Virus record (IMG/VR): IMGVR_UViG_3300007735_000794
Span: 34,069-98,068 of that record
DNA: 64,000 nucleotides
DNA from: a virus
Strand: one strand, 5' to 3'
Position numbers and translations under genes: made by a program
Notes under the pieces: model-generated
The model's database searches: none
What the model saw: the letters and a program-made list of their open reading frames with translations, nothing else
Told to the model about the DNA's origin: nothing
Shown: positions 1 through 28,597 of the stretch, piece after piece
How positions within the stretch are numbered: the stretch's first letter is position 1
Layout of the letters: each line of letters begins with the position of its first letter

Positions 1-516
1 GTCGGTGCAAAATATTATTATGATATTGAAAATGAGACTGCACTCGACATTATGTATGGGTATGATATGCAGTCATCATATAGCTTTCCAAATCAAGATC
101 CTGACGCAATTCATGAGGCTTTAGGAATGAACACAATCAAATCAAAATCATTAAGACACATACGCGAATCATTGAGCGACATGTATAAACGTGTAAGTGA
201 TGTAGAAACAAATGGATATTTTGCTAATTTCGCGCGCGAGTTTTTAGCGAAATATGATGATATGTTTAATGATTATGAACAATTTACAGAAGAAGACAAA
301 TTACAGCTACGTATATACTTGAGTGTATTTGCGCAAGAAATTAAAGATGCAGAGAGCAATTGGGACAGATTAGAACAAATAAATGCACTCATACAGATTT
401 TTATCGACGCAAATTTTAAGACGCCTGCTGCATTCGCACACATGGTCATGGGTGTTAAGCGAAAAGATTACACAGAATTTGATGATTTTGTTAATCTATC
501 GGATAAAGTTAAATGA
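1..516 (+). CDS. 5'-truncated hypothetical protein, probable member of the ~130-aa module family
   Basis: Frame is open from base 1. Contains IRES (160-171) followed by a unit with FTEEDKLQLRIYLSVF, weakly like the T-x-x-E-x-x-x-L helix of the downstream repeats. Confidence 0.7.
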   Translation, partial: VGAKYYYDIENETALDIMYGYDMQSSYSFPNQDPDAIHEALGMNTIKSKSLRHIRESLSDMYKRVSDVETNGYFANFAREFLAKYDDMFNDYEQFTEEDKLQLRIYLSVFAQEIKDAESNWDRLEQINALIQIFIDANFKTPAAFAHMVMGVKRKDYTEFDDFVNLSDKVK

Positions 517-2609
517 GCCTAAATCTTCAACAAGCGATTCGCGAGATTTTGTCAAACAAAAATCATTTGTATGAAAGTACATTAGAAGCGAAAAAAGAAA
601 TCGCAGCGTATATCAACGACTCAGTCATTTTTGACATTATGAAAAAAAATAAAGATGCAAATTACGATGATTTACTTCGCGTTACGTCATCAGAAAAAGA
701 AGATTTATTTGTTACATGCAAAATTATAGCAGCGCTTATAAAAGAGTTTTTTGAAGAAAAATCTCTTCTTGATGATGGAAATTCTATATTTGTCTTTGTT
801 GAGTCTGTATTCTACCTTACAGGTATCGAACAGAATTATTCGATATCAGCTTTTTATTATCTTATCGTAGATTTTTACGATGAATTAAAATTGGGCAAGA
901 CGCGTTTTGTTGATAGAGAAAATAAAGTAAGCGCAGTGGAATATACGTTTGATTGTTACTTTGTAATAGAGAATGCTATGCTAAACGAGTCAGAAGATCT
1001 CGATGAAAAAGAACAGCTTACGACAGCAGAGGCATTGGATTTTATTAATGATTCAATCATAGCTGTCATTGCGTCAAGAGAAGACACGCGAGCAGGCGTA
1101 GATATTGATATTGATAACGAAATAGGCGATAATGATTTTGACATTAACAAATTAATCAAAGTAACAAGCGCCGAAAAAGATGATTTATTTATAACTTGCA
1201 AAATTGCTTCACGTGTTTTCGATAAAAAGCTGTTTTTAAACAATTGTTGGGGTCTAGCTGCACTTTTTGGTAGAACACGTTACGCAACAACAGACCCGTT
1301 TATTTTGCTAATTTATGCATTTCATAAAGAAGAAGTGCACAAAAAACCATTTGTAGAAAAAACATTCAATGATTGGTTTGAAGTCGATGATGTCAACATT
1401 TTAACAGAATCGGTAGAAAATGATATTCGCGACGAAGAAGAAATAAGAACAGAAATAGAAACTATTATTAACAACTCAATAATCAGAGACTTCGGAGAAT
1501 ATTCGAATGCAATTGAATGCGGTGTAGATACTGATTTTTTAACGCAACAAGAACAAGACGAAGTATTGATTACATGTAAGATTCTAGAACGAACGTTTAA
1601 TGAACTCACAAGAATGAATGGTAAGTATTTCTGGGCTTGTGTGCATGATACGCTTAAAAATTTGGAAATTTTGAATTTAAGAAAAATACTTGACTGCATT
1701 CACTTGATACATCAGGGAAGGATTACAGAAGCCGAACACGATCTTTCATTTGATCTATTTGACAGATGTAGAAAAGAAAAATTAGATGAATCAAATGAAA
1801 TGTTAAACACTAATGCAGAAGAGCTTACGCATGAGATTGCTGAATTTATAAATTATTCTATCATTAAACAACTTTATGATGGGACAGTATACGAGATTAC
1901 GCGCCGCAAACTTACAAATGACGAAGCTAGTGAATTGTTTGTTACTTGCAAGATTCTTTCAAAATTGTATAACGATTTGTATAACTTGGAACCAAAAAAT
2001 TCTCACCGTGATTTCTGGGATGTTTCGTATTCATCGCTTGCTTGTCTTGATTCGATTGCAAATAGACGAGAAATTTGTGAAGTTATTTATAAATGTTGGA
2101 ATGGACATGAAGATTTTGCGAAAGAGTATATCAAGACGACAATTTTTGAAGTTCAAGTAGCACAAAAACTTGATGAAAGTGTAGATTACACTGAGCTTCG
2201 CAATAAATATGATGATGTAATAGACGAATGTGTAGCATTTATGAAAGACAGCGATCTTGATGTTCTCATGCACGAAATAACAAAAGGTGTAGATGAATTC
2301 CAAGAAAGATATGAAAGAATTAAGATTTCAAGAGCAAATGCATCAAAACTATACATCATATGCAAAATAATTTATTCATTTGCAAAAGACGCGTATATTC
2401 TACTTTATATGTTAGATCCCGACTTGGCAACATCTGGCGGTTGCATCAAAGGAATGATTAATGCATATGTTTATAGAGAAAAAAAGTTCTTAGGTGATTC
2501 GACGCATCAAAGAAGTCTTAGTTATGATTTGCTTTTGAATCTCATCAATAAAATAGAAAGTTATAAATCACTCGAAGAATCAGAACTTTTTGAGGTAAAA
2601 GATGAGTAA
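513..2609 (+). CDS. Five-module repeat protein, putative protease-processed internal head polyprotein
   Basis: 698 aa. Five units share (F/Y)IN(D/N/Y)S(I/V)I...T-x-x-E-x-x-(D/E)-LF(V/I)TCKI, each preceded by L-x-E-S. Leader MSLNLQQAIREIL. Confidence 0.75.
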   Translation: MSLNLQQAIREILSNKNHLYESTLEAKKEIAAYINDSVIFDIMKKNKDANYDDLLRVTSSEKEDLFVTCKIIAALIKEFFEEKSLLDDGNSIFVFVESVFYLTGIEQNYSISAFYYLIVDFYDELKLGKTRFVDRENKVSAVEYTFDCYFVIENAMLNESEDLDEKEQLTTAEALDFINDSIIAVIASREDTRAGVDIDIDNEIGDNDFDINKLIKVTSAEKDDLFITCKIASRVFDKKLFLNNCWGLAALFGRTRYATTDPFILLIYAFHKEEVHKKPFVEKTFNDWFEVDDVNILTESVENDIRDEEEIRTEIETIINNSIIRDFGEYSNAIECGVDTDFLTQQEQDEVLITCKILERTFNELTRMNGKYFWACVHDTLKNLEILNLRKILDCIHLIHQGRITEAEHDLSFDLFDRCRKEKLDESNEMLNTNAEELTHEIAEFINYSIIKQLYDGTVYEITRRKLTNDEASELFVTCKILSKLYNDLYNLEPKNSHRDFWDVSYSSLACLDSIANRREICEVIYKCWNGHEDFAKEYIKTTIFEVQVAQKLDESVDYTELRNKYDDVIDECVAFMKDSDLDVLMHEITKGVDEFQERYERIKISRANASKLYIICKIIYSFAKDAYILLYMLDPDLATSGGCIKGMINAYVYREKKFLGDSTHQRSLSYDLLLNLINKIESYKSLEESELFEVKDE

Positions 2610-4140
2610 ATATATCGAAAGCGCATCTGAACGATATTTCGATCCAATTTTTGAAGAGCTCACAGAATTCGTTGAAGAGCTTGATTTAAAATCATTTGAT
2701 AATGCGACTAAAATTACACGAAAGCAAGCAGAAGAGCTTGATTTTGCAATCAAAGTGATTGCAAAATTGACTCGTGAATTTTGGGAACATACTGTGGATA
2801 AAACTCCTGATTTATTTCCACCAATCGAGAGTTACTATTGGGCTTCTAAAACATCGTCTTATTATGCAAATTTGAGAATATTTTTTAGATTTTGCGGAAT
2901 TGCAAATTCATCAGTTTTTGCTGGTTTAGTGTCATATTATCAAATGGGATATGACCACGACATCATTAAACATACTTGGAAGATCAAGGACGATACGAAT
3001 CTTAATGAATCTCATGATAAAAATTTATTAGAACAACAATATAATGATCTTGTAGATGAGCTTGTAACATACATAAGCTATTCATCTTTGGCAGAAATTA
3101 TTCCATATGAAAATTTGCAACAAAATAAAATTACACATGAACAAGCAAATGAAATATTTTATGTTTGCAAAGTAATTGCATATTACATGAATAAGATTTC
3201 TAGCGCTTTAAAAGATAGAAATCATTTAGAAAAAGTTGAAGTAGCTTCGCGCATAAGGAACATTTTACGTCAATGCGGGATAACAGATTTGCGACTCTTG
3301 ACAATTTTTTCACGTGTTGTCGTAGCTGTCATGAATAATCAAGATGCAGATTTAAAAACTGCATTTAATAACAATATTACACAAATCATTAATGAAGCTA
3401 TACAGAAAAATAGCGGAGAATGCTGCCCAATATGTGGTGCAGAAGAAAATGTGTCGTGTGAACATTATCCAACAACGAATGAGCAAGATGAGATTTTAAG
3501 CGCTGCATTTTATGCTTATCTAGAAGACGAAACATCGACTGCTTGGGCAATAAAAATCGCAGCGTCTGTTGTTGATTTAAATTTGTATAGGCGCTATATA
3601 GATGAGCTATTCAAAGGTTACACAGAAATGACGCCAGAAAAGCGAATGCTTCATTTTGTCGCAGGTGTAATTCGTGATGCAGTTGAATTTCATGATGAAA
3701 ATGCATCATTTGCATATTCAACTTACATTAAGTTTGCAGATCGCATTATTGATTATTTGCAAAACAAAGGCACATTACATGAATTCATTTCTGAAGCGTT
3801 AATGATTGATGACATTGGTCAACATTCTGAATTTATGTTGGCACAGCGTGCATTCATAAATGAAATCAAAGAAGTCATTGAGCAACTTGATCCATTTATA
3901 TTTGCAAATGCACGTCATACTTCAAGAATCGAATTAAGAAATGATTTTGATTTTGCGTTAAAACTTATCAATGCGATGTTTATAAAATTTTGTCAAGAAA
4001 CATCAACAAAGTATGACTACAGTTTAATCTATCGTGTTATAAGTTCGACGCAACTTTATTCTAGTAATTATGATGTGATAGAAGTAGCAGACAATATAGA
4101 CGAAACGCGTCGCGGCACATTTAAATGGAATAATACATAA
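2602..4140 (+). CDS. Four-module repeat protein, paralogous to 513..2609
   Basis: 512 aa. KITRKQAEELDFAIKVIA and KITHEQANEIFYVCKVIA match the repeat core. YIES, LNES, INEA and ISEA fall at about 130-aa spacing. GAGGT SD upstream. Confidence 0.72.
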   Translation: MSKYIESASERYFDPIFEELTEFVEELDLKSFDNATKITRKQAEELDFAIKVIAKLTREFWEHTVDKTPDLFPPIESYYWASKTSSYYANLRIFFRFCGIANSSVFAGLVSYYQMGYDHDIIKHTWKIKDDTNLNESHDKNLLEQQYNDLVDELVTYISYSSLAEIIPYENLQQNKITHEQANEIFYVCKVIAYYMNKISSALKDRNHLEKVEVASRIRNILRQCGITDLRLLTIFSRVVVAVMNNQDADLKTAFNNNITQIINEAIQKNSGECCPICGAEENVSCEHYPTTNEQDEILSAAFYAYLEDETSTAWAIKIAASVVDLNLYRRYIDELFKGYTEMTPEKRMLHFVAGVIRDAVEFHDENASFAYSTYIKFADRIIDYLQNKGTLHEFISEALMIDDIGQHSEFMLAQRAFINEIKEVIEQLDPFIFANARHTSRIELRNDFDFALKLINAMFIKFCQETSTKYDYSLIYRVISSTQLYSSNYDVIEVADNIDETRRGTFKWNNT

Positions 4141-4163
4141 ATGTGCCACGAAAATTTATTTAA

Positions 4164-5114
4164 TTAACGTCTCATACCTAATTTAGCAGGTCCGCCCAAG
4201 AATTGGCCAAATGCTTGATCTTCTACATCGCGCGTTTCGCTGAGTGCATCGAAGAATCCTTGTTCGAAAACTTCGCGACTTTGTGACGTATTTTCAATTT
4301 CCATAAGTAAAGTAACAAGATTTTCGGAATTTCTTGCAGCTTCTTTTAAAACTGCGTCGTAATACTTAGAAAGCACATCGCGAATTCTTTCTGCCATTGG
4401 CGCATTTTCTTGTTGCGCTTGCGCATAATTTACTTGTGGCGTTAATCCAAGCAAATTTGCAAACCAGCCGTCCTCAGTTGCTCTAATCATATTAAGCGCA
4501 ATTTGAAAATTGCTTATGAATGCTCGAGGATCGCTCTTCATAAGTCTACCAAGCTCTGCCCATACAAGCGGCAAAATTCTCATTCCAACACTCATTGCAG
4601 GAGCAACAAACTCTTCCATCAAAACTTTTGAAACAGCTATTTTGACTTGTATTCTGTTCTTTTTTCCTGCAAGATCACGAACAGGGAAGTATTTTTGTTT
4701 TGTTTCTGGCGGCGGGTCTATTCCTGGCTCATCTTCTGGAGCATTGCCCACAACACCCTTGTGTTTTTGTTTCGTTCGATTTGCAAGCGCATCATCGAAC
4801 GCTTGATCAAAATCAAAATCATCATCTACGTCAGAGCTGTCTAATGCATTTAATATACTCTCGGGAGTTGCACCCTTAAATTGATCAAGTGTAACACCTC
4901 CCCGGGCTACCGGAGGAAGATTTACATTTTTTTGTCTTGTGCCAAGGTCGCCACCTTTTGGAAGCACTTCAACTTCTCCGCCGCCAGCGGGAGCATTAAG
5001 CAAATCTTCAAGTTCTTGCTCTTCTTTTGATAAAACTTTTGTTTTAAGCGGAGGATTATCAAAAGCTTCTTTTATAACTGCACGTATTGTTTTTCTTAGA
5101 TTTCTAATTGACAT
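4164..5114 (-). CDS. Hypothetical protein with capsid-targeting-like leader
   Basis: 316 aa. N-terminus MSIRNLRKTIRAVIKEA, then an acidic, Pro-rich linker. Confidence 0.7.
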   Translation of the reverse strand: MSIRNLRKTIRAVIKEAFDNPPLKTKVLSKEEQELEDLLNAPAGGGEVEVLPKGGDLGTRQKNVNLPPVARGGVTLDQFKGATPESILNALDSSDVDDDFDFDQAFDDALANRTKQKHKGVVGNAPEDEPGIDPPPETKQKYFPVRDLAGKKNRIQVKIAVSKVLMEEFVAPAMSVGMRILPLVWAELGRLMKSDPRAFISNFQIALNMIRATEDGWFANLLGLTPQVNYAQAQQENAPMAERIRDVLSKYYDAVLKEAARNSENLVTLLMEIENTSQSREVFEQGFFDALSETRDVEDQAFGQFLGGPAKLGMRR

Positions 5115-5121
5115 ATTGAAT

Positions 5122-5856
5122 TTAGCCTCTTAAGCGTGTATAGTCTACGCTATGTCTAGAATATTGGTTCCAAATATCGTTATCAAATTCATGACGACCG
5201 CGATCGTCGCCTGCAGCGCCCAGACGTTCTGCTTCGTAATGAATAAATGAGAACCACCAACCAAATTGTTTCATGATTGTATCAAATAAGACAGTATGCG
5301 CAAAGTCAAATTTTGATTCGTCAGTTATTCGACAGACGACATCTGTCGAATTAAAGAGCTTTTCTAATAGTGACTCATCATCGTCTTCTATAATTTCATC
5401 ACCAATTTCATTATAAAATGTAAATGGACATTTTGAAATATCATATTGAAATCCTGCTACAAGTTCAGTTGTAATAATCTCGAATGCATGCACGATCATT
5501 TTCACTAATTCTTTAGTGAGCGCCTTGCCAAGTTTTTTTGTTACGTCATCAGTACTTTCTGCATTTTTTAAGAATTCATTAGAAAGCTCTTTTGCAAATG
5601 AAATAATTATGCTTTTGATACTTGCGTCTGATTTTAATGTCTCATTTGATATTCCAAAGCTTTTTGCTAGTTGCATGTATTTTGTAGTTAGACCTGACGC
5701 ATATTTTTCTGCAATGTCATAAAATACTTCGCTTTTTGCAATTGTTGTTATGCTATTGAGAAAATTTGTAATTTCTTCATCTGACACGTCGTCGATGCCT
5801 TCGAGCATGAGGTGTCTGCGTATGAGCGATCTAAGAATTGTGTTTTTTATTTCCAT
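5122..5856 (-). CDS. Hypothetical protein with leader, paralog of 7879..8550
   Basis: 244 aa. MEIKNTILRSLIRRHLMLEGIDD, with further shared blocks. Confidence 0.7.
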   Translation of the reverse strand: MEIKNTILRSLIRRHLMLEGIDDVSDEEITNFLNSITTIAKSEVFYDIAEKYASGLTTKYMQLAKSFGISNETLKSDASIKSIIISFAKELSNEFLKNAESTDDVTKKLGKALTKELVKMIVHAFEIITTELVAGFQYDISKCPFTFYNEIGDEIIEDDDESLLEKLFNSTDVVCRITDESKFDFAHTVLFDTIMKQFGWWFSFIHYEAERLGAAGDDRGRHEFDNDIWNQYSRHSVDYTRLRG

Positions 5857-5860
5857 TATT

Positions 5861-7795
5861 TTAACCGATGATTTTTTGCCATGATTTAAGTAATTTGTTT
5901 TCTTTAAACAAATCGTTTAAATCATTATCAATTTCTTGATCATTTGCACTTTGAACATTATCATTTAGCCCTAATATGCGTTTAGACTCGTCAGGAACAA
6001 TACCGAGGAATTTGTTAACAGTGATTGCGTGTGTTAGCATTTGTCTAATTTTGCTATTTTTTGCAGATATGCCTATCGCGTCCATAAAAAGTTTAATTTT
6101 ATATGGGAGTGTTCCGTAATTAAATATCAATTCTAGCATATGAGGTAACTTTTTATTTTCTGGCGCTTTGTCTGGATTTATGATATACAAGTTCGCAATC
6201 TTAAGCGAAACGTCGCGAGGCCATGATTTAACAAATGCAGGATTGCTCAATGCTGCTTGGAATGATTCATTTGTTAAAACAAAATCCCAAAAGTTTCCGT
6301 TAAGTCCTGTTCCCATCGCGCTTGTGAATGATTTTGAACACATGTCAAGCACGATTTCAACGGGTGTATTTGGGTTTGTAGAAATATTTTTTGCGAGCGA
6401 TTGATAGTTTTTTTCTTTTGCATACTCATATGCAGCTTTAATTTCTTCAACATTGTCAGAAATTGACATATCGTATGCTTTTTGAACTTTTGCGTATGGA
6501 CTTCCTAAGCTTATCATTAATGATTTTGTTTCTTCATCTTGATTATCTACTAATTTATTCCACGAAGATAACATCTTAAATATTGCATCTCCCGATGCTT
6601 TAACATTTTGAAAAAGTAAAAACACATTTTTTGCATTTTCTGGCCAGATTTTTATATCTGAGTTATCATTGAATATCGCAGCAAGCGTATAATCATTCAA
6701 CTCTTCTTTGTCTGCATTAATTTTGATAAGTTCATTCAATACATTTGAATCTTGATTTGTAACTTGATAAGTGAGACGAGAAAGCGTCATAAATTTAGCA
6801 ATGAATGCAGCACATTCTCTAGAGAATTTTACATTTGCAGATGTTGCATCTTTATAAATTCGAATAGCTTCCTCAGTTCTTTGCTGAGCGCTGAGTGTGA
6901 CAAGCATTTCTTTCATTGCACCGAGATTATTTGCAGCCTTGATAGCATAATCTGCGGCGGGCGCAACGCCACCAATCGATTCAACTTTTTCGAAGATAAT
7001 CTTCATAATCTCAGAATAATATTGACCCAAGACGCGTTTGTGGTCTTCAGCTGTCATTCCTTTATTGTCTCTGTCAATCGTTGTTCCGCCATTACGTCCA
7101 TCTATAAGCTTGCCGTCTTTAAAACCAATTGACATATAATCAAATTTTCCGGCGGGGTCTGGATAAGGACGCGCGCCATCTTTGATAATATAGATTAATA
7201 GCTTGTCACCAGAGTTGTATGTGTAGAAAAGATTTGATTGAGATGTATAGTTTGTACACCACGTTGTGTTAGGTGCCATTGTTATCGGATCATAGCCTGC
7301 AATTTCCATACTGTCTGCCATGTTGTGAGGCAGCCAAATGTTCCAAGGACCGACTTTTCCTATCAATTCTTTTGGGCCACCCTGCGAACCTGTCAGTGCA
7401 AGCCTTTGTTTTTTCTTTGATGCCAACGCCATGATTGTAGTCATTTCATCGACTGTCATCTTTTGAAAATCTGCAGGATTATCCCACGATTTTTCTTTAT
7501 TGAGCCCAGCATAGTATGCTGCGATATCTGTCTTAAACTGTTCGTTTGTTGCCCATTTTTGGCTAAGACCTGATGCTAATCCTTTGTATGATTTAACAAT
7601 TCCAATGCAGTCCTCAATTGGATGAGTTTCTTTGATTGATTTTTCTTTTCCAAATCTCTTAATCAACCAAGAAATGCAAGGCGGATCAAGTTGCATAATC
7701 TGTGGCGCTTGAGCGCTGTATTTATCTGCCAGCTCTTTTTGGTCATCTTTAAATCCTTCAAGCAGCAATTCGGCAATAAATTGTTTTATATGCAT
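5861..7795 (-). CDS. Large phage protein with WCT (PcfJ-like) domain and leader
   Basis: 644 aa. MHIKQFIAELLLEG; TTWCTNY...NLFYTY...LLIYII; LRV-like NPNTP repeat. Confidence 0.65.
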   Translation of the reverse strand: MHIKQFIAELLLEGFKDDQKELADKYSAQAPQIMQLDPPCISWLIKRFGKEKSIKETHPIEDCIGIVKSYKGLASGLSQKWATNEQFKTDIAAYYAGLNKEKSWDNPADFQKMTVDEMTTIMALASKKKQRLALTGSQGGPKELIGKVGPWNIWLPHNMADSMEIAGYDPITMAPNTTWCTNYTSQSNLFYTYNSGDKLLIYIIKDGARPYPDPAGKFDYMSIGFKDGKLIDGRNGGTTIDRDNKGMTAEDHKRVLGQYYSEIMKIIFEKVESIGGVAPAADYAIKAANNLGAMKEMLVTLSAQQRTEEAIRIYKDATSANVKFSRECAAFIAKFMTLSRLTYQVTNQDSNVLNELIKINADKEELNDYTLAAIFNDNSDIKIWPENAKNVFLLFQNVKASGDAIFKMLSSWNKLVDNQDEETKSLMISLGSPYAKVQKAYDMSISDNVEEIKAAYEYAKEKNYQSLAKNISTNPNTPVEIVLDMCSKSFTSAMGTGLNGNFWDFVLTNESFQAALSNPAFVKSWPRDVSLKIANLYIINPDKAPENKKLPHMLELIFNYGTLPYKIKLFMDAIGISAKNSKIRQMLTHAITVNKFLGIVPDESKRILGLNDNVQSANDQEIDNDLNDLFKENKLLKSWQKIIG

Positions 7796-7826
7796 TTAAT
7801 TCTCACAAGACAGAACAAGTTATTTA

Positions 7827-7833
7827 TAACTAT
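7827..7833 (-). promoter_or_regulatory. Putative late promoter ATAGTTA
   Basis: ATANTTA motif upstream of the 7795 start, heading the minus-strand unit. Confidence 0.45.
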
Positions 7834-7878
7834 ACAAATGAGTGTCTAGAAAATAATCTTTTAGCAAAAATGTTATAG

Positions 7879-8550
7879 CTATGCTATTTTTGCTTTAATG
7901 CTTGCACACTCTTTAAAATCAAAATTATAAAACCAGCATGAGATCCTGTAGATCAACATCTCATACAGCGCTTTTTGATCATCATCAAGTGATATTATAG
8001 TTATGAGTTCGCCTCTCTCGCGAAGGTCAATAAGTTCTTCATAATCTGTAATTAGTTTTCCTGAGCCATCATGGACGAAGACGTCTTCGTCGTGCGTTTG
8101 ATAAAGCGCTTCGAATGCGAATTCACTTGGTAGCTCACTAATGACGCCGACAAGCATCTTTACTATTTCGTAGACAAAGATTTTTACGATTTTTTCGTCA
8201 TTAATAATTTCTGAGTATTCTTCGATGTCTGCCTCAGATTCTGCTAAGAGTTGCAGTATATTAAGATATAGATTATTTGCATTAAGAATTAACAGCTGCT
8301 TTATTTGATTATTCTGCTTCAGCGTAACACGATTCATTCCGCTAGGTGAATGCGCCATTTCGTAGAGGACTTTTCCAATTTTGTTGTCTATTGCGCTCTT
8401 AACAAAATCTTCATCAAACTTATCAGCATGATGAAGTTCTATGATTAGATCGACTAATTGAAGTGCTTTTTCTTTTTTATTGTCATCAAGCCCTTCTTCA
8501 ATGATCCTTCGTTTAATTAGCGATCGAAGAACAGAATTTTTAACAAACAT
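7879..8550 (-). CDS. Hypothetical protein with leader, paralog of 5122..5856
   Basis: MFVKNSVLRSLIKRRIIEEGLDD. ATG at 8550 preferred by paralog alignment; TTG at 8568 is possible. Confidence 0.7.
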   Translation of the reverse strand: MFVKNSVLRSLIKRRIIEEGLDDNKKEKALQLVDLIIELHHADKFDEDFVKSAIDNKIGKVLYEMAHSPSGMNRVTLKQNNQIKQLLILNANNLYLNILQLLAESEADIEEYSEIINDEKIVKIFVYEIVKMLVGVISELPSEFAFEALYQTHDEDVFVHDGSGKLITDYEELIDLRERGELITIISLDDDQKALYEMLIYRISCWFYNFDFKECASIKAKIA

Positions 8551-8587
8551 TAGTAACGCCACGAACAATTATTAAATATACAAACAG

Positions 8588-9097
8588 TTAGAAAAATGTT
8601 TGCCTATTTTGGGGTTCAACATAGTCAAGCTTCAAAAATTCAAATACGGCATAATCGTCATAAAAATCAGAAATACATTCTTTCTTATCGTTTAAAATTT
8701 GATTTTTTGTATAACAATATCCCATTTCGCTACACATACTTGCAATAAAAATATTGAATCCAGCCGGACCTGTGTAATTCATTGTCATTATTCCAAAATT
8801 TTCTTTTGTTGCAATAAAAATATCAATTTGAACATCATCAATTGAAACGTAGTATGCAATTTTCCCAACTTGTTTTTTCAATTGAACGTTATCAAACCAT
8901 GATTTAAAATCATCAAGATTTTTTGGCACTATAACAATATCAACATCACCGCATGTTTGTCTTTGTCTGCGATATGACCCACATATTTCTAATTTTTCAC
9001 ATTGAGCATGAAGTCCCAACACTTTTAATTCTTCAACAATTTTTTCAACTTCTTTTCTTGATATTCTTCTGCTCTCACCAAAGACTTTGCCGCTCAT
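8588..9097 (-). CDS. polX: Minimal family X DNA polymerase (palm plus C-terminal domain)
   Basis: GSYRR...GDVDIV, QIDIF, YTG and C-terminal YVEPxNR motifs in 169 aa. Confidence 0.85.
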   Translation of the reverse strand: MSGKVFGESRRISRKEVEKIVEELKVLGLHAQCEKLEICGSYRRQRQTCGDVDIVIVPKNLDDFKSWFDNVQLKKQVGKIAYYVSIDDVQIDIFIATKENFGIMTMNYTGPAGFNIFIASMCSEMGYCYTKNQILNDKKECISDFYDDYAVFEFLKLDYVEPQNRQTFF

Positions 9098-9117
9098 AAA
9101 TCACACGTAATAAACAA

Positions 9118-9144
9118 AATATAATTCGTGTCATGATATTTACA
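9118..9144 (-). promoter_or_regulatory. Putative sigma70-type promoter for polX
   Basis: TGTAAA followed 15-17 nt later by TATATT/TATTTT on the minus strand. Confidence 0.4.
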
Positions 9145-9145
9145 C

Positions 9146-9152
9146 ATATTTA
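9146..9152 (+). promoter_or_regulatory. Putative late promoter ATATTTA
   Basis: 6 nt before the ATG at 9159. Confidence 0.5.
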
Positions 9153-9158
9153 TAGAAT

Positions 9159-9962
9159 ATGACGAAAATATTGCAAGAATCAATACGATGTATACTGAAT
9201 GAAACAGTAGGCTGGTCTGATAGCTTAGAATCAATCTCTTTGAGGTTAGAAGAATTGATTGGGAAAGAATTTTCAATGTTCAAGCATTTAGAAAAAATGG
9301 GCTGGAAATTGGGAAGATTTTTACCTGACACTATACCACACGATTTTGTTTATTTGGGTAGTGGCATGTATCGTGTTGTGTTTGCACCCAAATCAGACAA
9401 AGATTTAGTTATCAAAATAGCAAAAACAGAAGACGGTTGCGCTATGAATAGTGACGATGCTCTAGTTGGGAAAAATGGATATTGGGCGAAAGCGTTCCCG
9501 AAATGTTACAACGTTGCAGATGATTATAGATGGATTATTCAAGAGCGATGTGATGTTGCAAGAAATAGAAGTTCGCATGGCTATGCTGACCTTTCTAGTT
9601 ACTTTGTAAATACATACTTTTATTATTTTTCAGATGACGATGAGTGGTCTGTGCTAATTTGTTCACTTGCTATCGGCGCTGGAATGTCATTTGATGAATT
9701 AAAGAAATCATGCAGAAATGCATATCTTACTGCTGCCAATGAAATAAATAATTCTTTCGAAGAAGACCCAGATGAAATCATTCAATCTATGAATGACGAA
9801 CTTATGAATACATCTGCAACATATAAATTGTGGTGTGGCGCGATCAAGCGATTTGGAATTGCACCAGACGATTTATATTCAAACAATCTTGGATTTTCTA
9901 GAGAAGACTGCAGACCTGTTATTATTGATTCAAGCTTTATAAATACATTAGAGAGAACATAA
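9159..9962 (+). CDS. Protein kinase-like fold protein with leader
   Basis: Gly loop YLGSGMYRVVF, VIKIAK, hinge WIIQER, catalytic loop DDLYSNN, metal-binding VIID. Confidence 0.75.
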   Translation: MTKILQESIRCILNETVGWSDSLESISLRLEELIGKEFSMFKHLEKMGWKLGRFLPDTIPHDFVYLGSGMYRVVFAPKSDKDLVIKIAKTEDGCAMNSDDALVGKNGYWAKAFPKCYNVADDYRWIIQERCDVARNRSSHGYADLSSYFVNTYFYYFSDDDEWSVLICSLAIGAGMSFDELKKSCRNAYLTAANEINNSFEEDPDEIIQSMNDELMNTSATYKLWCGAIKRFGIAPDDLYSNNLGFSREDCRPVIIDSSFINTLERT

Positions 9963-9963
9963 A

Positions 9964-10686
9964 ATGAACGAACAATTCAAAAAGTTGCTAAGAGAATTCA
10001 TAAATGAAACTGTTATAAGACGTCGCGGCGGTGAAGAAGTAAAAATAGCATCTTCTGCCGATAGGATTTCTTCGTTTTCTGGCGCTACGCGCGGCAATAT
10101 TACATCGATTGGCGACATAAAAATATCACCAAAAGAAGCAAAAAACTTGTCGTTAGAAATGAATTCGCCATTTATGCAAGGGCCCGCATTTCATGCAATT
10201 TACAATGGAGGTGTGGGAGAAGAAAATAAATTTGTAAAGATAAAATCAAAAGAGCAAAAGCGTGCATCTATTTGGGGTGAAGATGACAATGAAGAGAACG
10301 TTAAAAAAGTTCCAACTCTTGCGAATTATAGAATCGGCGAAAAGGGCTCATATGTTTATATTCCTGAGCTTTTTTTGATGGTGCATAATCCTGCTACAGT
10401 TGATCGTGCATTTGGCGTCGGTTTTGTTAAAAATATAGAAAATTTCCCAACATCAACACCGGGCTATGATGCACCGCTTGCTCAAATAGAATTTGCTGAC
10501 GATCAAAAGCCACCAGGTCATATGAATACACAAAACATGGTTGGTTTAGCATTCGTATGTAAGTTATCAGAAGCAGATGCGCTTGTTAAAGCAGAACAAT
10601 TTTCAACGATTAAGAAACGAACACTTTCAAAGGGCGCGTCAGTCAAAGATCCAATAGTTGCAGCTCAAGAAGAAGATGATGACTAA
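9964..10686 (+). CDS. Hypothetical protein with leader
   Basis: 240 aa. MNEQFKKLLREFINET. Confidence 0.7.
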   Translation: MNEQFKKLLREFINETVIRRRGGEEVKIASSADRISSFSGATRGNITSIGDIKISPKEAKNLSLEMNSPFMQGPAFHAIYNGGVGEENKFVKIKSKEQKRASIWGEDDNEENVKKVPTLANYRIGEKGSYVYIPELFLMVHNPATVDRAFGVGFVKNIENFPTSTPGYDAPLAQIEFADDQKPPGHMNTQNMVGLAFVCKLSEADALVKAEQFSTIKKRTLSKGASVKDPIVAAQEEDDD

Positions 10687-11092
10687 ATCATGTGAAACAG
10701 TTATAAGAGCATTAATACGTGAATTTAATTCGCCGGTGGGTGATTCTGTTCTTGAAATGATGTCAGATGTCGAGGGTGTTGTCGAAGGAATTAGCAAATT
10801 ATCAGACGAGCTAATTGAAATAGAACCGCAGGTAGGAATTCAATTGAAAACATTTGCAAAGAGTTTAAAATCTTCACCAAAAAAAGGGCCCAAAGAAGTC
10901 GCAATTCAAATGCAAAAAATTTTAACATTTCTAGAAGATGAATTGCATGATGAAACGCTTGGTCTTCAAATGAGAATTGCGACATTGCTTCGAAGCTCGT
11001 TACCAATGACTGGAATATTTCAATCGCCACAAGCAGGTTTAAATCCCGCATATGATCCCACAAAAGGCAGCATGTTTAACAAAGCGGGATAA
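10676..11092 (+). CDS. Hypothetical protein with leader
   Basis: ATG overlaps the previous gene. MMTKSCETVIRALIREF. Confidence 0.65.
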   Translation: MMTKSCETVIRALIREFNSPVGDSVLEMMSDVEGVVEGISKLSDELIEIEPQVGIQLKTFAKSLKSSPKKGPKEVAIQMQKILTFLEDELHDETLGLQMRIATLLRSSLPMTGIFQSPQAGLNPAYDPTKGSMFNKAG

Positions 11093-16961: not shown

Positions 16962-18839
16962 ATGAAATCTATGAATATCATTTTTGTTGCCGATTTGTTT
17001 TCAAATGACTATGCTGGTGGCGCCGAATTAACGACAGACGCCTTAATAAGCTACGGTCCACAAAACATAATTAAAGTTCATTCTAAAGATGTTGATGTTA
17101 AATTTTTGCAAGATCATCAACACGATTATTGGGTTTTTTGCAACTTTTCATCTCTCAATTTCAACTTAATACCTTTGTTAATTGGTAACATAAATTACAG
17201 CGTCATCGAATACGATTATAAGTTCTGTCAATACAGGTCAATCGAAAAACACAAAGCTGCAACAGGATATGATTGCGACTGTGCAAACAAAGATATTGGT
17301 AAATATGTTTCTGCATTCTTTTATGGAGCAGACTATATTTTCTGGATGTCAAAAGGTCAAATGGATCGATACCATTCATTTTTCCCGTCATTAAAGAATC
17401 GAAAGCAAATGATTCTTTCTTCGGTATTTGACAATAACTTTTTTAATGTAATTGATGTAATGAAAAATTACAATGATAACCGAGACGGCTGGATAGTTCT
17501 CGGTTCTAATTCGTGGATTAAGGGCAAAGACAACGCAATCAAGTGGTGTGAAGAAAATAACAAAAAGTACGAAGTTATTTGGGACATTCCATATGAAGAA
17601 ACACTTGCAAAGTTGGCATCTGCTGAGGGATTTGTGTATCTACCAGCCGGCGGCGACACATGTCCTCGCATGGTAATTGAAGCAAAATTATTGGGTTGTG
17701 AAGTTGTAACAAATGAAAACGTTCAACACGAAAGCGAAAGCTGGTGGCAGAATGAACAAGAGATAACACGGGAGTACTTAGAAGAACAGCCATATGTCTT
17801 CTGGTCAATCATCGAAAAGTATTCCCAGCGTAATCTAGATATCTCTGGCTATACTACAACTTATAACTGTGTGAATCAAAATTACCCGTTTATTGAGTCT
17901 GTGACTTCGATGCTAAATTGTCTTGATGAAGTCATTGTTGTCGATGGTGGGTCAACAGACGGAACGCTTGAAAAGCTTCAACAGCTCTCAAATGAGAACA
18001 ATAAATTAAAAGTAGTGTCAAATCCACGTGACTGGAGTGATTCAAGATCCGCAGTTTTTGATGGTGATCAAAAAGCAGTCGCTAGAAGATATTGCACAGG
18101 AGATTTGTGCTGGCAAATGGATGTTGACGAAATCATTCATGAAAATGATTATCAAAAAATAAGAGAGCTTGTTAAGCATGTGCATAAAAGCAATCAAGTA
18201 ATTGCATTGCCAGTAATCGAATTCTGGGGTGCTAATAAGAAAGTAAGAATAGACATTAATCCATGGAAGTGGAGATTAAGTAGAAATTACCCGCATATTA
18301 CACATGGAATTCCAGCACAACTGCGACGTTATGACAAAGAAGGCAAATTGTATTCTGCACAAGGAACAGATGGATGTGATTATATACACGCAGATACATG
18401 TGAATTGATTCCATTTGTAAACTTTCATACACAAGAAACAGAAACTATGCGTCAAAATGCTGCATTTAGCGAAGAGTTTAGAATGAAATATGTTGATTGG
18501 TTTACGCAAGTAACAAATTCATTGCCAGGCGTTTATCATTATTCTTGGTATGATCTTGAAAGAAAAATAAAGACATACAAACATTTTTGGTCAAGGCATT
18601 GGCAAAGTTTGTTCGACATAAAACAAGAAGACACAGCACAAAACAATATGTTCTTTGATAAGCCGTGGGCAGAAGTTACAGACAAAGATATTAAAGAACT
18701 TGCAGAAAAGTTAGAAAAAGAAATGTGCGGCTGGATATTCCATAGAAAAATAAATTGGAAAACCCCCACGCCAGATGTTAAAATAAAAGAGTTAACGCAC
18801 CCAAGTGTGATGTCTAACTGGATTAAATGTGAACAATAA
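16962..18839 (+). CDS. Fused glycosyltransferase (GT-B/GT4-like plus GT-A/GT2-like)
   Basis: GGAELT, IKG and DTCPRMVIEA in the N-terminal half; VVDGGSTDGT and QMDVDE in the C-terminal half. Confidence 0.85.
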   Translation: MKSMNIIFVADLFSNDYAGGAELTTDALISYGPQNIIKVHSKDVDVKFLQDHQHDYWVFCNFSSLNFNLIPLLIGNINYSVIEYDYKFCQYRSIEKHKAATGYDCDCANKDIGKYVSAFFYGADYIFWMSKGQMDRYHSFFPSLKNRKQMILSSVFDNNFFNVIDVMKNYNDNRDGWIVLGSNSWIKGKDNAIKWCEENNKKYEVIWDIPYEETLAKLASAEGFVYLPAGGDTCPRMVIEAKLLGCEVVTNENVQHESESWWQNEQEITREYLEEQPYVFWSIIEKYSQRNLDISGYTTTYNCVNQNYPFIESVTSMLNCLDEVIVVDGGSTDGTLEKLQQLSNENNKLKVVSNPRDWSDSRSAVFDGDQKAVARRYCTGDLCWQMDVDEIIHENDYQKIRELVKHVHKSNQVIALPVIEFWGANKKVRIDINPWKWRLSRNYPHITHGIPAQLRRYDKEGKLYSAQGTDGCDYIHADTCELIPFVNFHTQETETMRQNAAFSEEFRMKYVDWFTQVTNSLPGVYHYSWYDLERKIKTYKHFWSRHWQSLFDIKQEDTAQNNMFFDKPWAEVTDKDIKELAEKLEKEMCGWIFHRKINWKTPTPDVKIKELTHPSVMSNWIKCEQ

Positions 18840-19569
18840 ATTTGTTTTTGTAACGCCTGTTTTTAATTGTCAAGATAAGATTGCTCAAACATTAATGACG
18901 ATGATGTCACAATCGTATAATGATTGGCGTGCAATCATTATAAACGATATGTCGACAGACAAAACATTACGAACAATAAAAAAGACAATTGCAAATTGTA
19001 CATTTAAAGACAAGTTTACAATCGTTGATAACAAAGAAAAAATGGGTGAAGTAAGAAATACGCTTAATGCTTCGTCAATGATAGACGACGATGAGATTGT
19101 AGTTCGTCTCGACGGTGGCGACTGGCTAACAGAGAATGACACACTTTGGCTTTTAAATCAAACTTATCAAGATTCTAAAGTAGACGTTGCATGGACATCA
19201 CATCGATGGGAGTATACTACACAAAATATTTCTGCACCACTTGTGTTGTCACATGGACAAACCGTTTATGACCATCCATGGGTTTCTAGTCACCTAAAGA
19301 CATTTAGAAATTCTGCACTAAAGAAGGTGCCGATTGCAAATTTCAAAGATGAGAATGGAAACTTTATAATGATTGCTTGCGATCAAGCAGTATTTCTACC
19401 AATGATGCACATGTCAATAATGGAAAACAGACTAGTCGGTCATATTCCTGTAATTTGCTATCACTACAGCATTAATTTGAAGGATAAAGAACTTTTTACA
19501 TCTGAAAGATCAATTAAACAAAAAAACTCTGCAGAGTGGATTAGATCACGTGGCTTTATCAAATGTTAA
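18829..19569 (+). CDS. GT2 family glycosyltransferase
   Basis: VTPVFN, IINDMSTD, LDGGDW. Confidence 0.88.
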   Translation: MNNKFVFVTPVFNCQDKIAQTLMTMMSQSYNDWRAIIINDMSTDKTLRTIKKTIANCTFKDKFTIVDNKEKMGEVRNTLNASSMIDDDEIVVRLDGGDWLTENDTLWLLNQTYQDSKVDVAWTSHRWEYTTQNISAPLVLSHGQTVYDHPWVSSHLKTFRNSALKKVPIANFKDENGNFIMIACDQAVFLPMMHMSIMENRLVGHIPVICYHYSINLKDKELFTSERSIKQKNSAEWIRSRGFIKC

Positions 19570-20453
19570 TAAACATAAATAATGTAGATTTTTCATCGAA
19601 CTCTGGCCCAAATTCATTTGCAAGCAGGCTTGCCACACAGCTCAGCGCTGCTGGTCATACAATAACAAAAGAAAAAAATGCAGACGTTCAACTTTCTTTT
19701 ATCACGATAACAGAAAATACGACGAAAAAAATATTCTTGCGTCTTGATGGCATTTATTTTAATACACAACAAGACTTTATTAGTATGAATGCGCCCATCA
19801 GAGAATCATTTAAAAATGCGTATGGTGTAATTTATCAAACACAATTTAATCACGATTTGATTGAAAAATATTTTGGTCGTCATATTAACACAGCCATTAT
19901 ACGAAATGGTACAGACTTAAAGACAATTGAAAAAATTCCCGCGATAAAACACGAAATCATAGACAAATATGAAAGTGTGTGGTCATGTGCTTCTTCTTGG
20001 CGCCCACACAAACGATTATCTGAAAATATTCGTTATTTTCAAGAACATGCAGGCAGAGATGATTGCTTAATAGTCGCTGGAAAAAATGCAAATTTCGATG
20101 GAATTAATGATAAAAGAATTTTGTATGTTGGCGACGTTAATTGGGAGACGCTGATTAGCATATATAAGCGTTCAAAATTTTTTATACATCTTGCGTGGTT
20201 AGATCATTGCCCAAATGTTGTAGTTGATGCAAGAGCAGCAGGATGTAAAATTATTTGTACAGACTCAGGTGGAACAAAAGAAATAGCAGGTTTAGACGCA
20301 AAATTAATTAATGATGAAAAATGGGATTTTGAGCCACATGATCTTTATAAACCTTCAAAATTAGACTTTTCAAAATTTAACAACAACACATATGATTCTA
20401 ATATTGATATCGTAGACGTTGCAAATAAATACATACACTTTTTAAAGAGCTAA
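19563..20453 (+). CDS. GT4 family glycosyltransferase
   Basis: SGPNSF, RPHKR, DHCPNVVVDARAAG...SGGTKEI. Confidence 0.85.
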   Translation: MLININNVDFSSNSGPNSFASRLATQLSAAGHTITKEKNADVQLSFITITENTTKKIFLRLDGIYFNTQQDFISMNAPIRESFKNAYGVIYQTQFNHDLIEKYFGRHINTAIIRNGTDLKTIEKIPAIKHEIIDKYESVWSCASSWRPHKRLSENIRYFQEHAGRDDCLIVAGKNANFDGINDKRILYVGDVNWETLISIYKRSKFFIHLAWLDHCPNVVVDARAAGCKIICTDSGGTKEIAGLDAKLINDEKWDFEPHDLYKPSKLDFSKFNNNTYDSNIDIVDVANKYIHFLKS

Positions 20454-20455
20454 AA

Positions 20456-21703
20456 ATGATTAAAAAAGCACATCACGAATCTTATGATAAATATGTTGAA
20501 AAACAAAAAGAGAAAACACTCGATCCTGACAAGCGAGAAAAATGGCTTACTGTCGAATGGCAATCTAAAATCGATGGATTCAAAAACGAATTTAAAAAAT
20601 TCGGAAACATTTTAAATCAAAATTCAAAAGTTTTGTGTATTGGTGCAAGAACAGGTCAAGAGGTCGAAGCATTCATCCAGTTAGGAATTAAAAATGTCAT
20701 GGGTATCGACCTTGTTGCATGTCCGCCTCATGTGATAGAAGGTGATATGCATAAACTCTCATTTGCAGATGAGACATTTGATATTGTGTACTCAAATATT
20801 TTTGATCATTCAACAAACCCAGCAAAATTTGTAAGTGAAATTGAAAGAGTTTTGAAAATCAATGGATTTGCATTTATGCAATTCCAACTTGGCATTGATC
20901 AAGATGAATATACAGAATACATTATTGAGAATCCATTTCATGACATCTTGACACTATTCAATGTTTCATATTGTCATCATATCAATTCAATAGAGCGAAA
21001 TTTTGCTGGAATGAATTTTGAGATTCTAACAAGAAAAGATGCTGAGCTTGTAAAGCTGTTTAATGAGGTAGGGACTGTAGAAACGTTAAAATTGCCAGAC
21101 GAATACAGACAATTGTGGGATGATATCAATCTAGACACACAAAAGCGTAAGCTTGATTCTGCATTTATTGTTGATGAGAACGAAAGGAACACAATTCTTG
21201 ATACGCTTTCAAAGCGTGCATATTATCTAACTAAAATCGCAGACACATACGGAGTAAAACAAATAGCAGAAGTTGGAACTGCTGAAGGATGGCAGTTTTA
21301 TTCATTCTGCAAATCAAATTCTGGCAACGTCTGGTCTTGTGACTTAAGAGATGTAAGATCTTCAAAATATGTAAATACATTTGAGAACGAAAAGTTCGTT
21401 GTAGGAAATAGCGATGCAATGAGAGATTCAATAAAAGAAGCAAATGAAAAAATCGATATGTTCTATATTGATGGTGGACATGATCAAGGAAATGTCGTAG
21501 CAGACGTAAAGAGCTTAATTCCTGTACAAAGCGACCAGTGCATTTGGGTATTTGATGACTTTGATACAAGATTTGGTTGCGTTAATGATATTGCTCAAAT
21601 TCTTGTAGCAAGCACGCAATTTAAAGTCTATTCTGTTGGAAAGACAGCAAGCGGTCAACCGAATCATCAAGCATTTTGCAGAGTTAAGTTCACAGATGGA
21701 TAA
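20456..21703 (+). CDS. Two-domain class I SAM methyltransferase
   Basis: VLCIGARTG...GDMH...RVLK, then AEVGTAEG...YIDGGH...VFDD. Confidence 0.82.
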   Translation: MIKKAHHESYDKYVEKQKEKTLDPDKREKWLTVEWQSKIDGFKNEFKKFGNILNQNSKVLCIGARTGQEVEAFIQLGIKNVMGIDLVACPPHVIEGDMHKLSFADETFDIVYSNIFDHSTNPAKFVSEIERVLKINGFAFMQFQLGIDQDEYTEYIIENPFHDILTLFNVSYCHHINSIERNFAGMNFEILTRKDAELVKLFNEVGTVETLKLPDEYRQLWDDINLDTQKRKLDSAFIVDENERNTILDTLSKRAYYLTKIADTYGVKQIAEVGTAEGWQFYSFCKSNSGNVWSCDLRDVRSSKYVNTFENEKFVVGNSDAMRDSIKEANEKIDMFYIDGGHDQGNVVADVKSLIPVQSDQCIWVFDDFDTRFGCVNDIAQILVASTQFKVYSVGKTASGQPNHQAFCRVKFTDG

Positions 21704-22559
21704 AGTTTTTCTTACATCTTGCATTGGTCTAGATTATGATTTATGTTTACTTGAGCATTTTATAAATCATTATCTAGACATGGGAATAAGGCATCAAAAC
21801 TTTTTGCTTGTTTTAAACACTTTCAAAGATCAAGACAATAAAATTAAAGAAAGCGAAGAAATATTGTTGAAATATGGAATAAAACCTGTAGATATTTGGC
21901 GCGGCGAATATGAAAGTGAAGAAAAATGGGCAAGAATAAATGCTGTCTTAACAAAACGAGTAACAAAAAATGACTGGGTTGTTCATCCAGATGCTGATGA
22001 ATTTCAAGTGTACCCAAAGAATCTCAATACACTCATCACAGACTTTGAAAGTTTAGGAATAAATGCAACACAAGGTTTTCTTATAGACAGAATATCTGCA
22101 GATCTAACTGTGAAAGACGTAGATAGAGATATAACAAATAAAATTTGGCATCAATACCCAGTTAATGCGAATCTTGCACCTTTGATTGGTCTAAAAGGCG
22201 TAAAGCTCATGATCTATCGTGGAAATATGCGTGCAAATAACGGCTCGGGTGAAATTAATGATTCATGCAAACATTTTGTTAATTACCCATACGGCTCGAC
22301 AGGACTTCAAAATTTTGAAATTACGAAAAGAATTATGAATATTGACAATAAAGATGAATTCATGAAGTTCGATGATAATTCTATGAATGAACTCCGATCA
22401 TTTCATAACTTCTTTACATATCACTTCAAATGGAATGGTGATGTAATGCCTAAACTTGAACAACGAATTGAAACATACAAGCGTTTAAATAGACCACAAT
22501 TGTTTCAATCAGTAAAATTTATTGAACACTATAAAAAGTACGGTAAGATATTAGTATAA
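21696..22559 (+). CDS. GT2-like (GT-A) glycosyltransferase
   Basis: HFINHY..MG, WVVHPDADEF, HFKW. Confidence 0.75.
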   Translation: MDKVFLTSCIGLDYDLCLLEHFINHYLDMGIRHQNFLLVLNTFKDQDNKIKESEEILLKYGIKPVDIWRGEYESEEKWARINAVLTKRVTKNDWVVHPDADEFQVYPKNLNTLITDFESLGINATQGFLIDRISADLTVKDVDRDITNKIWHQYPVNANLAPLIGLKGVKLMIYRGNMRANNGSGEINDSCKHFVNYPYGSTGLQNFEITKRIMNIDNKDEFMKFDDNSMNELRSFHNFFTYHFKWNGDVMPKLEQRIETYKRLNRPQLFQSVKFIEHYKKYGKILV

Positions 22560-23911: not shown

Positions 23912-23912
23912 A

Positions 23913-24689: not shown

Positions 24690-24690
24690 C

Positions 24691-26419: not shown

Positions 26420-27041
26420 AGCATTTTACATTAATGAATCTTTGCTTCCTAAAAATCCCATATTTTTACATATCGGTACCTTTACAGGTAAGCTAGAAAA
26501 GCTTCTTACAAAGCTATATCCGTCTTGTTCAATTTACTCAATTGAACCTCATCCTGATAACTTTGCAAAGCTTAGAGAAAATGTCAAAGAATTGACTAAT
26601 GTTTACTTGACAAACAAAGCGATAGTGAGCACAAATGATAACAAGGTTTTGCTAGCAGGAGTTGGATCTTGCGCATCTACTTATAAAGCGACAAATGGAA
26701 TTGAAGTAGATGCTATTACATTAGAGAAATTTGTATTAGAAAACAATATTTCAAATATTGATTGCATCTTTTATAATGCAGAAGGGTCTGAGATGGAGTT
26801 TCTTCCTTATCTTGTAGAAAATAAAATGTGCAGCATGATTACACAAATTTGCTTGAATTTCCATACCCACGTTCAAGGATTTGGAATTTCATATGAAAAT
26901 GCTTTTGAAATGATGGATCGAATAAAAATTCACGATCATTATGTAATAAATGATGATAGATCGACACGTGTCGCATCAATTGCATCTGGTGGAAGATTAA
27001 GTGAACTTTATCCGTGTTTCTTATTCTACAAGAGAAAATAA
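26391..27041 (+). CDS. FkbM family methyltransferase
   Basis: HIGTFTG, SIEP...NF, ITLE...NAEGSE, NFH. Confidence 0.8.
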   Translation: MKENLKYLVEAFYINESLLPKNPIFLHIGTFTGKLEKLLTKLYPSCSIYSIEPHPDNFAKLRENVKELTNVYLTNKAIVSTNDNKVLLAGVGSCASTYKATNGIEVDAITLEKFVLENNISNIDCIFYNAEGSEMEFLPYLVENKMCSMITQICLNFHTHVQGFGISYENAFEMMDRIKIHDHYVINDDRSTRVASIASGGRLSELYPCFLFYKRK

Positions 27042-27680: not shown

Positions 27681-27681
27681 A

Positions 27682-28596: not shown

Positions 28597-28597
28597 A

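Follow-up and report, generated by a model that had tools for sequence, protein, structure and literature searches.

Candidate capsid-targeted cargo polyproteins with prohead-protease-type joints in an uncultured T4-type jumbo phage

The internal proteins (IPs) of phage T4 are the classic packed and injected anti-defence proteins; they are single small proteins, each carried behind its own targeting peptide. The T4 capsid-targeting sequence (CTS) is 10–20 aa long; its residues 4 and 7 steer targeting, and its residues 8 and 10 (P3 and P1) govern processing by the prohead protease gp21 (PMC9026906, PMC5694885). The injected anti-defence proteins of T-even phages are diverse, and the CTS is all that is conserved among them (PMC3012670); it is viewed as a means by which T4-like phages load varied proteins (PMC9026906, PMC3012670, PMC5694885). 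T4 Alt is trimmed by gp21 at its C-terminus as well (PMC9026906). Here we analyse computationally a window of 64,000 nucleotides (the whole stretch of DNA studied, bases 34069–98068 of the 98,068-bp IMG/VR virus record IMGVR_UViG_3300007735_000794), at the start of which two overlapping genes encode proteins of 698 and 512 aa that contain diverged modules of about 130 aa, bounded by sites of the type found at the end of the CTS. We propose, with a probability of roughly 50%, that the two products are capsid-targeted, head-internal cargo polyproteins cut by the prohead protease. Full-text literature searches returned no paper describing prohead-protease-jointed polyproteins in T4-like phages.

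Three open reading frames (ORFs) were confirmed at this locus, all on the plus strand: 1–516, 513–2609 (698 aa), and 2602–4140 (512 aa). In the 698-aa protein the motif L-x-E-S occurs six times (nt 567, 981, 1401, 1782, 2169, and 2571) at a spacing of 127–140 aa, against an expectation of 0.43 ± 0.64, and none of 20,000 shuffles reached six. The five units between these sites are diverged repeats of about 130 aa. The number of sites follows an n+1 pattern, with one site before module 1, after a 10-aa spacer, and one after module 5, before a 9-aa tail. Copying of a unit would give n sites, but n+1 are required if all units are to be cut out, and this pattern therefore favours a recognition site. 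Across 12 joints, P3 is Leu in eight and Ile in four, P1 is invariably Glu, and P1' is Ser in nine and Ala in three. The joint motif is the same as the cleavage end, or processing half, of the leader that opens the 698-aa protein. The joints do not share the targeting half of that leader, as expected of internal cleavage sites.

This leader, M-S-L-N-L-Q-Q-A-I-R-E (aa 1–11; 513–545), is amphipathic, resembles a CTS and fits a 24-member leader profile. About 23 otherwise dissimilar genes, located on both strands at 22.5–45.2 kb of the record, begin with the same kind of leader (8–19 aa). In the profile, P7 is Leu or Ile, P6 Arg or Lys, P4 hydrophobic, P3 Ile or Leu (23 of 24 leaders), P1 Glu (24 of 24), and P1' mostly Ala, Ser, Thr, or Gly. 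A strict regular expression for the leader matched 18 of the 33 ORFs inside the array and 5 of the 90 outside it. CTS-like leaders are present on both the 698-aa protein (ending I-R-E) and the product of the upstream ORF (ending I-C-E|A). One array member starts with M-H-I-K-Q-F-I-A-E, which is close to the T4 CTS (M-K-T-Y-Q-E-F-I-A-E). The leader array covers window positions 1–11092 together with 22.5–34 kb of the record, and there is a further location at window 60970–61614 on the minus strand. A polX-like gene (8588–9097, minus strand) and a few antisense ORFs within the array have no leader.

Homology among the modules was evaluated with pairwise and profile comparisons. A hidden Markov model (HMM) of the unit identified five domains in the 698-aa protein (86–148 bits), the ends of which coincide with the sites, and pairwise blastp aligned the third and fourth modules at 30% identity over 125 aa. 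Two further clear modules were found in the 512-aa protein; their HMM-defined last residues are the Glu of LNE|S and the Glu of INE|A. The seven modules share about 20–33% identity, and only three columns of their alignment are invariant: the P1 Glu, a Glu in helix 1, and the Lys of the T-C-K-I core. At the DNA level a 33-nt core (encoding E-x-x-D-L-F-x-T-C-K-I) is all that can still be recognised, in four copies, and the duplications are therefore old. For the two C-terminal segments of the 512-aa protein (C3 and C4) and the unit that follows IRES in the upstream ORF, no match to the module profile was obtained: hhalign gave probabilities of <1%, and the HMM scores did not stand out from those of the decoys. 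The only hint of homology for these excluded segments comes from blastp, which aligned C1 with C4 at E 2.5e-4 in a database of 11 sequences. When the phage's own ORFs were searched for the module together with tenfold shuffled decoys, nothing outside the two proteins exceeded the decoys. From these comparisons, we regard seven as the safe module count. We also tried to extend the module family to the other leader-bearing genes and rejected this extension, since no other ORF scored above the 10x shuffled decoys.

These results agree in part with a first-pass annotation of the same DNA, made from the sequence alone. It had placed L-x-E-S at aa 19, 157, 297, 424, 553, and 687 around five homologous units, which the motif count, blastp, and the unit HMM all bear out, and its description of the units as acidic and about 15 kDa in size matches the values for all segments (13–16 kDa, pI 4.4–5.6). 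The net charge of the two polyproteins is -55 and -26. The proposed array of about ten modules shrinks to the seven that have statistical support from profile comparison. In the 512-aa protein the sites LNES (aa 134), INEA (aa 263), and ISEA (aa 396) are present as described, but YIES at aa 4 has Tyr at P3 and so does not conform to (I/L)xE. Likewise, IRES is found in the upstream ORF, but the unit behind it is not significantly similar to a module. We add one site that had been overlooked, IDE|T, 11 residues from the C-terminus of the 512-aa protein; SLEE|S has a similar place in the 698-aa protein, with 9 residues behind it.

Outside the record, P0003 (400 aa, E 1.5e-21) was the sole homologue that an exhaustive profile search brought up among 1.84 billion representatives. 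P0003 aligns with modules 1 and 2 of the 512-aa protein at 41% identity and keeps both joints, with L-Q-E|A (within Q-L-Q-E|A) in place of L-N-E|S and I-N-E|S (within I-I-N-E|S) in place of I-N-E|A. As P3 and P1 are kept while P1' is swapped between Ser and Ala, a "small residue" rule fits better than a helix N-cap. P0003 has a full T4-CTS-like leader directly before its first module, followed by three modules; the 512-aa protein has a leader stump at the position of this full leader. The source of P0003 is a 1,655-bp Logan contig without genomic context. P0004, a 99.8% identical copy of the 512-aa protein, added nothing. A word-based search with the 698-aa protein matched only the protein itself, and no match was obtained by tblastn and blastn against 50,697 phage records, by IMG/VR scans with the 698-aa protein, its 644-aa neighbour, P0003, and P0004, or by a metagenome scan with the C/P0003 alignment. 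No Pfam or PHROG family matched these proteins at E<0.01, and no enzymatic domain was detected in the chains by Pfam, PHROGs, and fold searches.

The AlphaFold (AF2) model of module B4 is all-alpha, with six or seven helices (pLDDT 77.5, pTM 0.75). Helix 1 starts at residue 2, and the last nine residues, including the site, have pLDDT values below 50. The modules were modelled as compact bundles and not as coiled coils, and in a two-module model the joint appears as a disordered or low-confidence coil between helical bundles. Foldseek of the module model against PDB and BFVD gave no match at E<=0.001; the top Z in a VIA wide search was 8.4 (TetR C-terminal-like), no more than noise for helical bundles, and an ESM Atlas search gave no lead (score 0.76).

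The phage belongs to a T4-type, uncultured, jumbo (giant) lineage from freshwater. CheckV estimates the completeness of the 98-kb record at 28%, which implies a phage of about 350 kb, and the record encodes gp6-like and gp25-like baseplate wedge proteins. Identical sequence is found in contigs of a virome study, of a second metagenome study, and of lake and river metagenomes; it therefore represents a phage that is real and circulates in freshwater. Judged by the gp6-like protein (29–32% identity), its nearest annotated relatives, all of them large, are the Flavobacterium "immuto" phages (160 kb), Microcystis phage Mel-JY01 (190 kb), and an uncultured phage of 484 kb (LR756508.1). All three encode a Peptidase_S77 (PF03420) prohead protease (45–120 bits) and a gp23-type capsid protein (263–283 bits). 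Five related IMG/VR fragments had no match to PF03420 or PF07068, which is uninformative because each of them is <40% complete.

Leaders of the same type occur in relatives. Two ORFs of LR756508.1 (L029:64-486 and 835-1377) begin with M-K-I-Q-E-Q-K-L-R-G-I-I-K-E and M-K-E-Q-K-L-R-R-I-I-R-E, respectively, and lie directly upstream of the gp21-like protease gene, where T4 has genes 67 and 68. The ORF of the protease itself is 574 aa long, and its match is split into two parts (model positions 21–127 and 98–195) about 1 kb apart, which suggests that this gp21-like ORF carries a large insertion. An IMG/VR fragment with a 30%-identical gp6-like gene contains three tandem leader-type ORFs (L014:234-2187), starting with M-I-S-L-K-K-L-L-T-E-G, M-I-L-L-R-D-I-M-A-E-D, and M-I-K-L-V-D-I-L-K-E-L; runs of leader-bearing genes therefore occur in distant relatives. 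Weak module matches in the 484-kb phage (16.5 bits) and in the Microcystis phage (13.9 bits) were discarded, as the ORFs look unrelated. Within the leader array, upstream of the window, a 129-aa antisense ORF (record 25652–26041, minus strand) ends with a match to the N-terminal region of gp23 and then stops. This match (PF07068, 28.8 bits) is above the cut-off and includes V-Q-P-M-x-x-P-x-x-x-x-F-Y-L-D as in the capsid proteins of the relatives, and phmmer of this ORF against PDB sequences gave no hit. The ORF may represent a capsid-gene fragment, a pseudogene, or a small decoy.

If the two proteins are capsid-targeted polyproteins, the leader of the 698-aa protein would act like the T4 CTS and dock the precursor on the prohead core. 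A gp21-type (Peptidase S77) protease would remove the leader, cut after Glu at every (L/I)-x-E|(S/A) joint, and trim the 9–11-aa C-terminal tails. Five separate acidic all-alpha bundle proteins of about 15 kDa, plus up to four from the 512-aa protein, would be released in this way. Being too large to leave the shell, they would stay with the DNA and be ejected into the host. The released modules may be diversified binders or decoys against host factors, or else structural inner-head filler. The 512-aa protein may be loaded via association with the 698-aa protein, may be translated in a coupled manner, or may not be packaged at all. A more elaborate version of this mechanism appears distinctly unlikely to us. 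In it, one or two genes would supply a whole repertoire: a 15-kDa acidic helical binder would have been duplicated in tandem and diverged while all joints retained their prohead-protease sites, a single leader would load about nine paralogous proteins at a fixed 1:1 stoichiometry, and these, injected with the DNA, would decoy or inhibit variable host proteins that act in defence or bind DNA.

The proposal of the first-pass annotation that the polyproteins are cut in the prohead is partly upheld. In its favour are the shared leader, the identity of joint and leader end, the S77 proteases of the relatives, and the joints of P0003, both of which are kept at 41% identity; conservation of the LxE sites at unit boundaries in homologues was one of the points on which that proposal had been made to depend. 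On the other side are the missing protease gene in the 98-kb record and the lack of a proper leader on the 512-aa protein. The suggested function as an injected effector, decoy, or DNA-mimic set gained nothing: because fold, Atlas, Pfam, and PHROG searches all came back empty, acidity is the one property of the modules that points to decoys or DNA mimicry.

Several observations weigh against capsid-targeted polyproteins. No PF03420 protease gene and no full major capsid gene are present within the 98-kb record, which is 28% complete. The 512-aa protein does not start with a CTS-type leader but with M-S-K-Y-I-E, with Tyr at P3. The total number of (I/L)xE motifs in the 698-aa protein is not enriched (16 observed, 14.2 expected), so that what stands out is where the sites are placed and the small residue at P1', and an internal ITE|A at aa 404 would fit the joint motif too. 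The S-x-x-(D/E) sequence after the joint resembles a helix N-capping box, which means that the motif could be partly structural. Conservation was assessed on two joints of one homologue, and the two-module model that places a coil at the joint has low confidence (pLDDT 56). Furthermore, the modules are acidic, unlike T4 IPII and IPIII, which are basic DNA-binding proteins. The phage is uncultured and the family almost an orphan one, and these are the main limits.

Three other explanations have to be weighed against these data. The chains could be multidomain repeat proteins that remain uncleaved, or are shortened by no more than the leader, and that act as beads-on-a-string scaffolds or multivalent binders, in or outside the virion, with L-x-E-S as a structural end-of-domain or helix-cap motif inherited with each duplication. 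Such a motif would be copied along with every tandem duplication, and the chance-level total of (I/L)xE fits this explanation, as does the likeness of Ser plus an acidic residue 2–3 positions on to an N-capping box, together with the start of helix 1 at residue 2 of the model. However, duplication alone predicts neither the extra site before module 1 (H-L-Y-E|S) nor the one after the last module. Ala, a poor N-cap, occupies P1' in 3 of the 12 joints and is exchanged with Ser across the homologue pair, the P1 Glu has remained invariant while most core positions diverged, and the motif is identical to the processing end of the leader. We regard uncleaved repeat proteins as rather unlikely. It is also conceivable that the proteins are not associated with the virion and act in the infected cell, with the leader serving co-translational regulation, intracellular localisation, or degradation control. 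The absence of head genes adjoining the array in the 98-kb fragment is in line with this, as are the interruption of the array by polX and other non-structural genes and the fact that a late-promoter signal could not be established. Against it, the leader and the T4 CTS agree in length, in amphipathic pattern, and in ending with (I/L)xE plus a small residue, and the same leader type is located directly upstream of the prohead protease gene in the 484-kb relative. We consider a role outside the virion unlikely.

In the remaining explanation, the proteins would be an expendable prohead core or scaffold like T4 gp22, gp67, and gp68, i.e., the acidic helical core of a very large capsid that is cut at many sites and expelled before DNA packaging. 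The T4 proteins gp22, gp67, and gp68 are themselves cut by gp21, and their fragments exit the head (PMC5694885); the strong acidity (net charge -55 and -26), the helical content, the leader, and the multiple protease-type sites of the two proteins would suit such a role. Yet in the relatives the place between the protease and capsid genes is already taken by a canonical gp22-like poly-Glu scaffold gene. The predicted products would be folded bundles of about 15 kDa, rich in aromatic and Cys residues, rather than short peptides, so that exit through a pore seems improbable. Moreover, the two genes lie in the hypervariable 23-kb leader-bearing array and are near-orphans with one homologue, whereas a core assembly protein should be more widespread. 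An expendable scaffold is very unlikely in our view, and capsid-targeted cargo polyproteins remain the reading we favour.

The layout of the locus is as follows. The upstream ORF (1–516) is the 3' part (171 aa) of a 286-aa ORF at record 33724–34584; its leader is M-L-L-S-K-N-Q-L-R-K-I-I-C-E|A, and it contains the internal sites IHE|A (aa 152) and IRE|S (aa 169, window nt 160). In the 698-aa ORF, the leader is followed by the 10-aa spacer (546–575), which ends with H-L-Y-E|S and provides the extra joint site ahead of module 1. Next come module B1 (576–989; 138 aa, pI 4.5, ending M-L-N-E|S), B2 (990–1409; 140 aa, pI 4.4, I-L-T-E|S), B3 (1410–1790; 127 aa, pI 4.6, K-L-D-E|S), B4 (1791–2177; 129 aa, pI 4.8, K-L-D-E|S), which is the unit used for modelling, and B5 (2178–2579; 134 aa, pI 5.1, S-L-E-E|S). 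The C-terminal tail (2580–2609) consists of 9 aa after the last site and precedes the stop codon. The 512-aa ORF begins with a vestigial leader (2602–2619, M-S-K-Y-I-E|S), the targeting half of which is missing, followed by modules C1 (2620–3009; 130 aa, ending N-L-N-E|S) and C2 (3010–3396; 129 aa, ending I-I-N-E|A). Segment C3 (3397–3795; 133 aa) ends with F-I-S-E|A, and its homology to the modules is not demonstrable. Segment C4 (3796–4140), of about 103 aa, ends with N-I-D-E|T, after which come an 11-aa tail and the stop codon; it shows a weak likeness to C1 and to a 131-aa ORF at record 32309–32704. Segment C3 opens with a Cys/His cluster, C-C-P-I-C-x7-C-x-H (window 3397–3500, aa 266–300), which is not found in the other modules and may be a small zinc-binding insert.

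The end of the 698-aa ORF overlaps the start of the 512-aa ORF by 8 nt, with GAGG located 6 nt upstream of the ATG of the latter, and the junction was confirmed in an independent assembly (2514–3054, 0 differences). A frameshift fusion of the two ORFs is unlikely, given the stop codon in the frame of the 512-aa protein directly before the ATG, the GAGG Shine-Dalgarno sequence, and the confirmed junction; simple translational coupling appears to be the better reading of this arrangement. All contigs that matched the window were identical, and population variants were not seen. One high-depth contig joins position 3386 to 3708 and thereby skips 321 nt (107 codons, in frame), starting at the C2/C3 joint. 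This skip is probably spurious, as it is anchored by only 20 nt on one side, but it could reflect a variant without segment 3. The T4 late-promoter sequence TATAAATA occurs in 13 copies in the 98 kb, which does not exceed a rough estimate from base composition, and we did not see a shared upstream motif.

Other genes on the record encode a PIN-PhoH protein, a primase, a RuvC-like resolvase, an Mre11/Rad50-like fusion, and a large glycosyltransferase cluster. The latter is a 16-kb run (window 16962–33471) of glycosyltransferases (GT2, GT4), SAM methyltransferases, and an asparagine-synthase-like amidotransferase, is placed between the PhoH gene and the baseplate genes, and has the look of a glycan pathway encoded by the phage. 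In the 64-kb window, no tRNA gene was detected.

Should cutting at the joints indeed take place, a polyprotein strategy like that of RNA viruses would be at work in T4-like jumbo phages. Several cargo proteins would then be loaded per targeting peptide, and the cargo could diversify via tandem duplication. A leader plus (L/I)xE|small joints would provide a simple rule for recognising virion cargo in uncultured giant phages, and the 15-kDa helical domain with its invariant Lys would be a new candidate host-interaction module.

The closest described counterparts are T4 IPI, IPII, IPIII, and Alt. Like these, the proteins described here have a short N-terminal amphipathic leader ending in (I/L)-x-E plus a small residue; hypervariable cargo follows a conserved leader, and the lineage is T4-like with a gp21-type protease, in our case found in the relatives. 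The 9–11-aa tails seen here may be compared with the processing of Alt, which is trimmed at both ends (PMC9026906, PMC3012670). The differences are that the proteins described here have no sequence or fold similarity to any IP or Alt, that one leader would serve five paralogous modules with internal sites rather than a single protein, that the modules are acidic, and that there are about 23 leader-bearing genes instead of 3–4. T4 IPs are themselves mutually unrelated, so that sequence homology is not required for membership in this functional class. As to the T4 scaffold gp22, a coiled-coil, poly-acidic protein encoded between the prohead protease and major capsid genes, the head gene cluster is not part of the record; the relatives hold a separate gp22-like gene at the scaffold position, and the modules are modelled as compact bundles and not as coiled coils.

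The inner-head paralogue families of phiKZ, 201phi2-1, and SPN3US offer another parallel, since these giant phages have expanded head-internal families whose members are cleaved at multiple positions, each behind a Glu, by a diverged gp21 homologue of the gp175/gp245 type (PMC5694885, PMC9026906). Those families are, however, encoded by separate genes (e.g., PF12699) and have long propeptides and an S/A/G-x-E or A-x-E motif, whereas the units described here are concatenated in one ORF and have Leu or Ile at P3; a Pfam scan at E<=0.1 gave no match to PF12699 in the three proteins. Polyvalent proteins, known from phages and conjugative elements (Iyer et al., 2017, PMC5512222), are likewise multidomain, predicted to be packaged and delivered with the DNA, and sometimes released by proteolysis. 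Their domains are disparate and mostly enzymatic, and they often include a peptidase of their own. The chains of this phage do not combine disparate activities, as at least seven segments are copies of one domain; they are tandem copies of a single, non-enzymatic-looking helical domain, and the cuts would come in trans from the prohead protease.

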